From the NCBI GenBank assembly GCA_964016885.1, contig OZ024746.1, forward strand, positions 10,168,001 to 10,232,000: 64,000 nt of DNA, read 5' to 3'. The translations under genes were made by a program, and so were the position numbers. This document shows, one piece after another, positions 14,846-60,698 of the stretch; the stretch's first letter is position 1; the number at the start of each line of letters is the position of its first letter. Source of the stretch: Eledone cirrhosa. Lineage: Eukaryota. A model generated the notes under the pieces. The model was not told the DNA's origin and did not search any database. It was given only the letters and a program-made list of their open reading frames with translations.

Positions 14846-15185
14846 GGAGGCACATGGCTCAGTGGTTAGAGCATTGGCCTTGCAATCGAAAGGTTGTGAG
14901 TTCAATTCTCAGACCGGGTGATGTGTTGTTTCCTTGAGCAAGACACTTTATTTCACATTGCTCCAGTTTACTCAGCTGTAGAAATGAGATGATAGTGACT
15001 GGGGTCCCTATCATTCCACTGTAAAGTGGACGTGTAGGTGCCACGGCAAAAAAAACGCACCCAGTACTCACTGTAAATGAGGTTGGTGTTAGGAAGGGCA
15101 TCCAGCTGTAGAAATCAAGCCAGAATTAGTTCCAGTCCCACCCTTGCAAGCAGGGAAAAGTGGACGTAAAATGAAATGAAATGAT
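14846..15185 (+). mobile_element. CORE-SINE family R, full length, inside (TA)n
   Basis: As above, plus ggaaaagtggacgtaaaatga tail. Confidence 0.9.
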
Positions 15186-26526: not shown

Positions 26527-27053
<527 letters not shown>

Positions 27054-27917: not shown

Positions 27918-28107
27918 TTATATATATATATGTAGGAGGTGAGTTTTATTGTAGTACAATAGTACAATAAAGCAATGCAGATATTTATTGTAGTACAATA
28001 GTACAATAAAGCAATGCAGATATCGGATAAGTAGCACTCTACAGTTTGTAGGACTGGAGTATAAATAATAATATATAAGATCAAAAGGTGGTTAAAAGAG
28101 TTCCATG

Positions 28108-28178
28108 TATTTTATTATGCGCATTTCAAAAACAAATATCATCATGCAATAACATTTGCGTTTTCGTCAGATAAAATA
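28108..28178 (-). ncRNA. Hammerhead, opposite arm of the 28068-28413 palindrome
   Basis: Reverse complement of 28303-28373. Confidence 0.85.
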
Positions 28179-28302
28179 GGGAGACATGATATGCAGGTTA
28201 AAACACACTTGTGAATAGTGCAGTTTTAAATCAACATATATATATGTTGATTTAAAACTGCACTATTCACAAGTGTGTTTTAACCTTCATATCATGTCTC
28301 CC

Positions 28303-28373
28303 TATTTTATCTGACGAAAACGCAAATGTTATTGCATGATGATATTTGTTTTTGAAATGCGCATAATAAAATA
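28303..28373 (+). ncRNA. Minimal hammerhead with palindromic stem III TGCGCA
   Basis: tattttat-CTGACGA-aaacgcaaatgtta..tgatatttgttttt-GAAA-tgcgca-TA-ataaaata. Confidence 0.85.
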
Positions 28374-28403
28374 CATGGAACTCTTTTAACCATCTTTTGA
28401 TCT

Positions 28404-28490
<87 letters not shown>

Positions 28491-42214: not shown

Positions 42215-42295
42215 TTATTCCGGGTTGAATCGGAGGTAACCACAGTAAGTAAGGTACTCAATACATAGCAGAGTATAACAGTTTTAATATAGATG

Positions 42296-42346
42296 AGATT
42301 CTATAGGACTAGAACTGTTTCATTCATTAGAAATCATCAGGAATCT
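42296..42346 (-). ncRNA. Hammerhead, opposite arm of the 42280-42617 palindrome (one stem III mismatch)
   Basis: Reverse complement of 42551-42601 except ctg>cta. Confidence 0.7.
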
Positions 42347-42550
42347 GGGTATCAAAAAATAAATATGGTATTTATAGGTCTCTACAAGTGGTAGGAGAGG
42401 GTGGGGAGTGGGATGGGTGCAGGTCATTGGGTGATAGAGAAGGGAATGAATTCCCTTCTCTATCACCCAATGACCTGCACCCATCCCACTCCCCACCCTC
42501 TCCTACCACTTGTAGAGACCTATAAATACCATATTTATTTTTTGATACCC

Positions 42551-42601
42551 AGATTCCTGATGATTTCTAATGAATGAAACAGTTCTAGTCCTGTAGAATC
42601 T
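42551..42601 (+). ncRNA. Type I hammerhead, predicted GUA cleavage site
   Basis: agattc-CTGATGA-tttctaatgaat-GAAA-cag ttctagtc ctg-TA-gaatct. Confidence 0.8.
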
Positions 42602-42951
42602 CATCTATATTAAAACTATATGTATATATATGTATATATATATATATATATATATGTATATGTATATATGTATATATATGTATATATATATGTATATGTA
42701 TATATGTATATATATATATGTATATATATGCATATATATGTCTATATATATATGTATATGTATATATGTATATATATATATATGTATAGGTATATATATG
42801 CATATATATGTCTATATATATATATATATAGTTAGGGAAGCAGGAAAATGCTTATTGTGATCCAGTTCGTGGTTAAGAAACGGTCGTAAATACCTGGATA
42901 AAATCCTTTTCTTACCTGTGTTTTCTCTTTTATACTATATATATATATGTG

Positions 42952-59577: not shown

Positions 59578-60698
59578 TATTGCATAATCGGCAGTAAGGC
59601 TGGCCTGCACGATATGCTGAAGCACTAGAAAGTTTTGTCCATTTCAAAGTGTATTGCAGGATAACCGAAGATGGCACTATATCGGCTGTACCTCTACCAC
59701 TTTTAAATCTCGTTGGTACCAACACCGTAGTTCGATAAAGAACATCAAATACCGTTCCGTAACTACCTTAGTCAATACAATTTGGCAGTTGCGCGAAAGT
59801 AACCTGCAATACACTTTGAAATGGACAAAACTCTCTAGTGCTTCCGCATATCGTGCAGGCCAGTCTTACTGCCGATTATGCAATATGGAGCTATTTTACA
59901 TACTAAAATCCAATTATACTCTTCTCAACAACAGAACGGAAAGGACTCTATACTGCAATCACAGACTCAAGGCTACCTTCTCTAAATACAAACCTGGCTT
60001 GATTTGATCCTGCGACTTCTGCCTTCCTCTATCTTCCTTCTACCTCCTCTATCTATCCCCATGGATTATTGCTATGCCTTCTATTAACCACATCTCCCCT
60101 ATTCAACATCTCCTCCTACATACTTTACAAGTCACTCGACATAATCTCCCTTGCCTCCATCTATCATAGATCGTAAACCTATCAACGTCTACCATCTCTC
60201 TAGCACACACACATAGTTGGACTAGTCCATATCTAGACTTCATTATCATATTTTATCCTCCCCTCTGTTTTACCTCAACAACTATGAAAAACCCCCCTAT
60301 CTCTCTCGTCTTTGTCACATCCTCCTTCTTCTCTACTTCAACTTCACATGAATTCCTATAAAAACCTGAACATTCTGGTGCGGTAAACATAATCTCTGAT
60401 GATATGGGATCGATTGTGCATTGGATGTCGAATGCTCTACTAAATATATAATATTATAGATGTAGCGAGATCTAGGCAAATTGATGTCTATTGAAACGTA
60501 CGTAAGAACTGAATAAATCTCTTTTACTGCATCTTTCTGTTCTTTTTAATTCTTTATACACGCCCCGGAATATAGCTAAACTGGAATATACACCTTTTTT
60601 CTGCATTTCGTTGAGCACCACTCTGTTGTAAGCTGACATTCCCCTACACGGTACATAACACTGTGTCCTGGAAAACATTAATGCACTCGTGCATAACC

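Follow-up and report, generated by a model that had tools for sequence, protein, structure and literature searches.

How does a stretch of Eledone cirrhosa DNA (the window, 64,000 nucleotides) come to hold a palindrome without a spacer, at 28068..28413, in which each arm carries a hammerhead motif, and why does a second locus of the window, at 59.5 kb, turn at the same sequence? An earlier note made from the window alone offered two answers, copying of one arm by fold-back priming or gene conversion between the arms. Comparison of family copies across the genome points to a different one.

The palindrome and its hammerhead motifs

The centre is at 28240/28241 and divides the palindrome into arms of 173 bp each (28068-28240 and 28241-28413), 98.8% identical and differing at the pairs 28194/28287 and 28088/28393; the description first given, of spacer-less arms of ~173 bp with two mismatches, is thus accurate. 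A hammerhead on each strand had also been claimed, and both arms have the motif and the stems of type I. Read outward from the centre, each presents an 8-bp stem I (TATTTTAT/ATAAAATA), CTGACGA, a long stem II, GAAA and a self-complementary stem III, ATGCGCAT; core and stems I-III fit the type I motif by motif and folding. An Rfam search gave no hammerhead family match at the gathering threshold or at E<=10, just generic hairpin matches below the gathering score, so that the ribozyme call depends on motif and stems. Core and stems are kept in 72 of the 98 arms of the junction set, and two copies of the hammerhead co-fold in silico as a dimer via stem III. The whole insertion unit, 27932-28413, is larger than the palindrome first reported: the left arm has a tail of ~85 nt (27932-28059) and the right arm has none. 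Over 156 nt the right arm is 100% identical to each of 40 scored genomic copies. In what follows the locus is L002 of the locus set, and family position 0 is the T of TTGATTTAAAAC, window 28247. The features are:

27920-27931, left flank: (TA)n next to the tail
27932..28059, minus strand: tail of a Penelope-like element (PLE), found on the left arm alone, extending ~85 nt past the point where a tailless copy ends, and adjoining (TA)n
27945-28023: 39-bp tandem duplication inside the tail
28068..28239, minus strand: left arm, the tail-bearing pLTR copy, running outward from the centre
28108..28178, minus strand: left-arm type I hammerhead motif (stem I, CTGACGA, stem II, GAAA, palindromic stem III)
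28235..28246, unstranded: head-to-head junction CATATATATATG, in which the A of ATATG (family position -5) opens each arm, with 2 additional bases
28242..28413, plus strand: right arm, a pLTR copy whose tailless end enters (TA)n
28303..28373, plus strand: right-arm type I hammerhead motif, with the predicted cut between 28365 and 28366
28404..28478, unstranded: (TA)n target microsatellite, right flank

A rod with a ribozyme in each polarity invites comparison with viroid-like or retrozyme-like ambisense RNA, a reading that has next to no probability here. The motif does stand on both strands and is retained at the frequency just given, but with one sense hammerhead per strand no unit-length monomer would be released, a read-through RNA would fold to a 170-bp duplex (-273 kcal/mol) that buries the motif, and retrozymes are head-to-tail arrays whereas the palindrome is head-to-head. 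The viroid likeness had been called superficial, and rightly: a protein-coding retroelement has this arm as its 3′ end, and a single motif together with its inverted copy makes up the pair of hammerheads.

The arm as the 3′ end of a Penelope-like element

Each arm is almost certainly the 3′ end (a pLTR with a type I hammerhead) of a PLE encoding RT and GIY-YIG, and the palindrome a stub of that element. Upstream of the arm, in L045 and others, is a 596-aa frame in which RT motifs and a GIY-YIG-type domain are recognised from motifs and homologues, of which the PLE protein has 33 at 30-40% identity. Pfam gave no RT or GIY-YIG match in three frames, and an intact full-length ORF was not found among the copies examined, that of L052 being frameshifted. 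The order pLTR, tail, ORF, pLTR is present in L043, L052 and L005, in an element unit of ~3.7 kb. The Hydra-clade motifs are there, namely the CxCX5C linker (CNCPVKNKC), DKT (HSDKT), CxxC (CNLC) and CxH (CLH), the last two surrounding the conserved E and N of a GIY-YIG core without CCHH, and (TA)n flanks nearly all the printed loci. Judged by these motifs and by target site, the element would be classed as a Hydra-type PLE. The Hydra clade, in the parts of PMC8557442 drawn on here, has the same CxCX5C, DKT, absence of CCHH, CxxC/CxH, hammerhead and (TA)n target; its described members are generally <3 kb, whereas this unit is longer, has an Asn-rich insert before the linker and has RWI for RWK (RWI in L052; RWK in 3 of 6 aligned homologues). 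The insert, of ~70 residues between RT and linker (residues ~300-440 of the L045 ORF), is one that most homologues lack; Adineta Penelopes have been described with N-rich inserts (PMC3846280).

Copies of the family have two 3′ ends, at positions 171 and 256, and the 85 nt between them are the tail, a 23-mer of which has 12,980 exact matches genome-wide. A GAGTRC-type motif is seen in the tail of all three hammerhead PLE families of this DNA (here at window 28030-28045, minus strand).

Two other classifications were considered. A separate non-autonomous lineage is unsupported, with the same subfamily haplotypes occurring in stubs (113 arms) and in read-through arms (36). A MITE or foldback DNA transposon was rejected: the ends are asymmetric, the junctions are variable and an RT ORF is linked. 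The window locus itself is an ordinary dead stub.

A centre fixed in position and formed at each insertion

The junction pattern has 1,864 exact matches per strand genome-wide, and its reversed control none, so many more than chance would give (genome counts are by exact patterns; the first 50 junction matches represent 49 loci). About 1,800 loci have the same centre, and the fixed turning point proposed from two loci is amply borne out. Native read-through of the junction site gives 5,452 matches. Rates of stopping were taken from arms not chosen for their 5′ end, excluding samples selected to reach position 0: among 157 such arms 47 stop at -9..-2, 40 of them at -5/-6, while 84 run through and 26 stop elsewhere over ~135 nt.

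At 59.5 kb the features are:

59351..59519, minus strand: full tailless arm, of another subfamily, with GATA for GAAA in the hammerhead core
59516..59523, unstranded: junction CATATATG, at the same family position
59520..59581, plus strand: right arm, cut off at 62 bp by the element listed next, with no hammerhead and no tail remaining
59578..59885, unstranded: unrelated MITE-like element with 86-bp terminal inverted repeats (95%), adjoining the shortened arm

This locus had been taken as a second member of the same family folding at the same point, which it is (94.8% identity, centre 59519/59520); it has one full arm only, however, and no second hammerhead. Variants mirrored on its two arms had been read as specific to the locus. 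They are not: L065 and L074 have the very 42-mer that carries them, and among 230 further loci of the family that were checked, one of the two single variants is present in 93 and the other in 33. The mirrored variants are alleles of subfamilies.

The position is fixed, and the bases at the very middle vary, with 20 forms in 49 junction loci (among the matches listed), the commonest, CATATG, accounting for 19 of the 49 among those same matches. That the middles vary means that each junction was made at its own insertion, as one part of the earlier suggestion, a mirror arm made at each insertion, had it. As a separate observation, the junctions of L207, L210, L011, L028 and L029 repeat the arm's first 5-8 bases, which resembles repeat addition by template realignment.

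An assembly or amplification chimera would be a trivial source of such palindromes, and it too has next to no probability. The arms differ at two sites here and by up to 6.9% elsewhere, the one-sided tail and the (TA)n flanks are repeated in dozens of loci, and strand-switch joints at family position -5 also turn up in raw reads from three further individuals (78, 89 and 112 reads). These joints have 2-3 starts each, come from amplified RAD libraries and belong to loci other than the window locus, so that in principle the window palindrome itself could still be a chimera.

The hammerhead cut was considered as the turning point and rejected, lying as it does ~124 nt from the centre; in the tail-sampled set it coincides with 1 of 22 early stops. 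Arm 5′ ends are found at the predicted cut in L110 and L019 (family position 119) and L154 (118), and run X15 has a read joint at that position (3 reads). Arms that start there may reflect cleavage in vivo and run-off, though their number is too small for them to serve as evidence.

Why the arms match

In 32 pairs the arm-to-arm distance averages 1.25% and the locus-to-locus distance 5.6%, though the partner arm is usually no closer than the nearest of the other loci. The arms are alike, then, because they have a common source subfamily. Median arm-to-arm divergence is 0.6%; in old pairs it reaches 6.9%, and of the private changes 40 are confined to a single arm and 9 appear on both. Gene conversion homogenising the arms, the second of the two original suggestions, is with these counts not needed. 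All subfamily sites are common to both arms in 56 of 67 pairs, and in 2 of the 67 the arms differ at such sites (L195 at 5, L085 at 4), differences that fit either two templates or later ectopic exchange. The sequences read as those of arms that came from one source RNA and would have aged separately thereafter.

The same data bear on the possibility that the palindrome is one inherited unit, MITE-like or a master hairpin, with its arms kept alike by gene conversion. The 19 identical CATATG middles (among the matches listed) and the 9 private variants on both arms are what it would predict. Against these stand the 20 different middles and the 40 one-armed variants, the extent of divergence in old pairs, a centre common to subfamilies ~5.6% apart, and arms that elsewhere continue into the RT ORF; such a unit is very improbable.

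Two cDNAs or fold-back

If the arms derive from one source, was the second copied from the first? Which arm has the tail, and how far each arm extends, are informative. Exactly one tail is present in 48 of the 49 junction loci (45 by script and 3 by reading, among the matches listed) and in 70 of 73 in a larger, overlapping set, where none has two; one two-tailed pair, L153, is known from outside the junction sets. Were the start chosen independently on each side, the one-tail share would be at most half. There is also an order in how far the arms reach. Among 56 tail-sampled pairs (8 of the 90 loci in that set being unmappable) the tailed arm falls short of its partner in 31, is level with it in 21 and goes beyond it in 4, of which 2 face a full-length partner. 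Taken by length instead of position, the tailed arm is shorter in 21 and longer in 14, and the rule is weaker overall. In pairs whose tailless arm extends more to the 5′ side and whose tailed arm extends more to the 3′ side, neither arm can be a simple copy of the other.

This is the main difficulty for fold-back priming, in which a strand would fold at its end and be copied back: many pairs have unique sequence on each arm, which fold-back cannot give unless the first arm's tail is later trimmed. It survives only with that extra step. Trimming would mimic the order rule, and the near-identity of the arms (the 0.6% median) and the 56 pairs with all subfamily sites in common are as fold-back would have them. 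Yet trimming would sever the target-primed strand from its primer, zero-loop junctions (CATATC+ATATG) leave no space for a priming hairpin, the extra G considered below occurs on either arm, and two pairs have arms of different subfamilies. The junctions most favourable to fold-back are 48 that join -5 to +41, the expected product of cDNA snap-back on a local hairpin. Of the 30 of these that were examined, 24 have the tail on the +41 arm, which fold-back would make the copy, and 5 on the -5 arm, where fold-back predicts it; 1 has no tail. Fold-back, the first of the original suggestions, is in consequence disfavoured and looks unlikely even when trimming is allowed; the evidence favours two separately made cDNAs.

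What sets the stop

Two cDNAs that end at the same place call for something that ends them there. The base before -5 is G 2,557 times and A 783 times genome-wide, where the native base is C. Within 70 loci the extra G is on the tailed arm alone in 15, on the tailless arm alone in 7, on both in 4 and on neither in 44; microhomology accounts for some of the G cases. Position -5 is the A in TTTTCA, a pyrimidine-purine (CA) step. A block to RT by RNA structure upstream was rejected as a candidate, the bases upstream of -5 being predicted to be unpaired in the native context. In L1 untemplated G has been linked to cap copying (PMC9341517), and the promoter of Penelope is internal to its pLTR (PMC2377424). 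Taken together, the G, the CA step, an internal promoter and the lack of an upstream fold fit a capped RNA start at -5, so far as sequence can indicate one. Seven copies in which a pLTR precedes the ORF leader at the 5′ end start at -432, -277, -165, -37, -22, 54 and 124, none at -5, from which it follows that their RNAs extended further upstream.

A hairpin could stop the RT instead. A predicted hairpin has a 5′ strand that begins exactly at -5 and pairs with +37..+41, and two cDNAs of the same element could each halt because the cDNA snaps back on this -5..+41 structure, leaves the RNA and adds 1-4 templated bases, the first read as G. The coincidence of its start with -5 speaks for this, as do the junctions that contain CATG, which such a snap-back would produce by extension (5 of 70, among the commonest classes), and a related family, that at 3.3 kb in the window, in which no G excess was seen (30 matches). 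But its outer stem is merely 5 A-U/G-rich pairs, the completed +41/-5 junctions number 48 against the 2,557 with G, 84 of the 157 unselected arms read through the site, and the GG junctions of L106 and L167 fit untemplated addition, not snap-back. As what sets the stop, the hairpin is doubtful, a shade less so than fold-back; a brief snap-back on it could, as a model, also supply the G.

A proposed order of events

The reading that we prefer, and consider rather probable, is double priming by a PLE, with run-off at the probably capped 5′ end of the RNA and joining of the cDNA 3′ ends. Both broken ends of the (TA)n target would each prime cDNA on one RNA. The two fixed 3′ ends, 171 and 256, would be two RT start sites; a PLE protein studied in vitro uses both DNA strands as primers, and its RT begins at two sites bounding the tail (PMC11167929). 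The RT that starts at 171 would lead and that from 256 trail, and with a trailing RT the tailed arm would stop level with or short of its partner. If position -5 is a transcription start inside the pLTR, both cDNAs would run off a fixed RNA 5′ end there, the extra G being presumably the cap copied by RT. The cDNA 3′ ends would then be joined, with the self-complementary ATAT helping, which would yield the spacer-less CATATG centres.

Relation to known elements and to other families in the window

The architecture is not in itself new. Inverted pLTRs, palindromic junctions and one-sided tails have been published for EN+ PLE insertions (PMC3846280, PMC8557442, PMC2377424), and the EN+ PLEs of Craig et al. 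2021 (PMC8557442), Arkhipova et al. 2013 (PMC3846280) and Schostak et al. 2008 (PMC2377424) are like this family in head-to-head pLTRs, a junction palindrome, one tail, a microsatellite target and a pLTR hammerhead. Compared with the insertions in the portions of those papers drawn on here, here nothing but the pLTR is left of either copy, ~1,800 loci have one fixed centre, and the tail is ~85 nt as against 30-40. Self-priming on an antisense template was proposed in PMC3846280, whereas two cDNAs are favoured here. PAc, the Poseidon of Anolis (Frangieh et al. 2024, PMC11167929), has the same two RT starts bounding a tail, cutting and extension of both strands, an AT-rich target and a predicted dimer. 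Its start sites in vitro are alike between the strands, whereas the two arms here almost always use different ones, and the joined head-to-head product seen here is not described for PAc in the relevant parts of that paper.

The type I hammerhead with a short palindromic helix III, for which a dimer is expected, is shared with PLE hammerheads (PMC4209133) and non-LTR retrozymes (bioRxiv 10.64898/2026.07.22.740005). Retrozymes, as that preprint presents them in the part drawn on, are head-to-tail tandem arrays giving circular RNA, whereas this is an inverted pair; no pLTR-only head-to-tail array was present among the family loci mapped.

L1 offers a further comparison. Its 5′ inversions arise by twin priming, in which two primers come from one target break, as in the model preferred here; in L1 the second anneals upstream and the segments do not overlap. 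Here, in contrast, the two copies overlap, each having its start at the 3′ end, and a palindrome results. Full-length L1 copies have an untemplated 5′ G (PMC9341517), comparable to the extra G at the proposed RNA start here.

The window has hammerhead palindromes of two further families. That at 3255-3483 has a 30-nt spacer and ATATATAT as stem III, and belongs to another Hydra-type PLE family, with 4,947 exact matches and a GIY-YIG frame upstream in L290, L280 and L273. Its 5′ ends cluster loosely, ~65-75 nt before the query motif (11 of 30 within 11 nt), and the 10 pairs fetched, two of them one duplicated locus, have by eye apparently one tail each. That at 42215-42627 belongs to the third family, with 179-bp arms, a centre at 42448 at native GAATTC and a tail on the left arm; beyond the tail, L236 and L243 have an RT-like frame, and no 5′ hot spot was seen in 30 matches. 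Its hammerhead motif has skewed strand counts (3,826 and 1,648), and at G000:C1:83679806-83688437 there are at least 9 head-to-tail copies of it at ~1.07-kb spacing, in a retrozyme-like or satellite array. Of other RNA-like sequence, 14855-14912 (plus strand) and 26803-26859 (minus strand) in the window give partial tRNA-like matches just over the Rfam threshold and are likely tRNA-derived SINE heads.

Significance

The origin of the tandem and inverted ends of PLEs has been described as an open question (PMC8557442). The literature searched, mainly main texts outside subscription journals, gave no earlier account of a PLE junction that is fixed in place and bears an untemplated G, of PLE twin priming or of such ordering rules; within it, what is new is the fixed junction with its extra G and the ordering rules. 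Thousands of young junctions supply base-level rules that any PLE mechanism must explain, namely one tail per pair, a tailed arm that does not pass its partner, and a fixed stop with an extra G, and these can be tested in the existing in vitro PLE system. The ~1,800 near-perfect 340-bp palindromes are also likely to give rise to hairpin RNA where transcripts read through them, and to cause difficulties in assembly. More tentatively, and with somewhat less than even confidence, PLEs in general may integrate by double priming, an RT dimer on two fixed sites of one capped RNA making two ordered cDNAs that are joined head to head, with thousands of stubs that would record the RNA start to the single base via the untemplated G and may propagate in the manner of a SINE. 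The tailed arm would regenerate the promoter and both start sites, so that stubs may propagate themselves; if true, this would be a SINE-like class of which every insertion is a palindrome.
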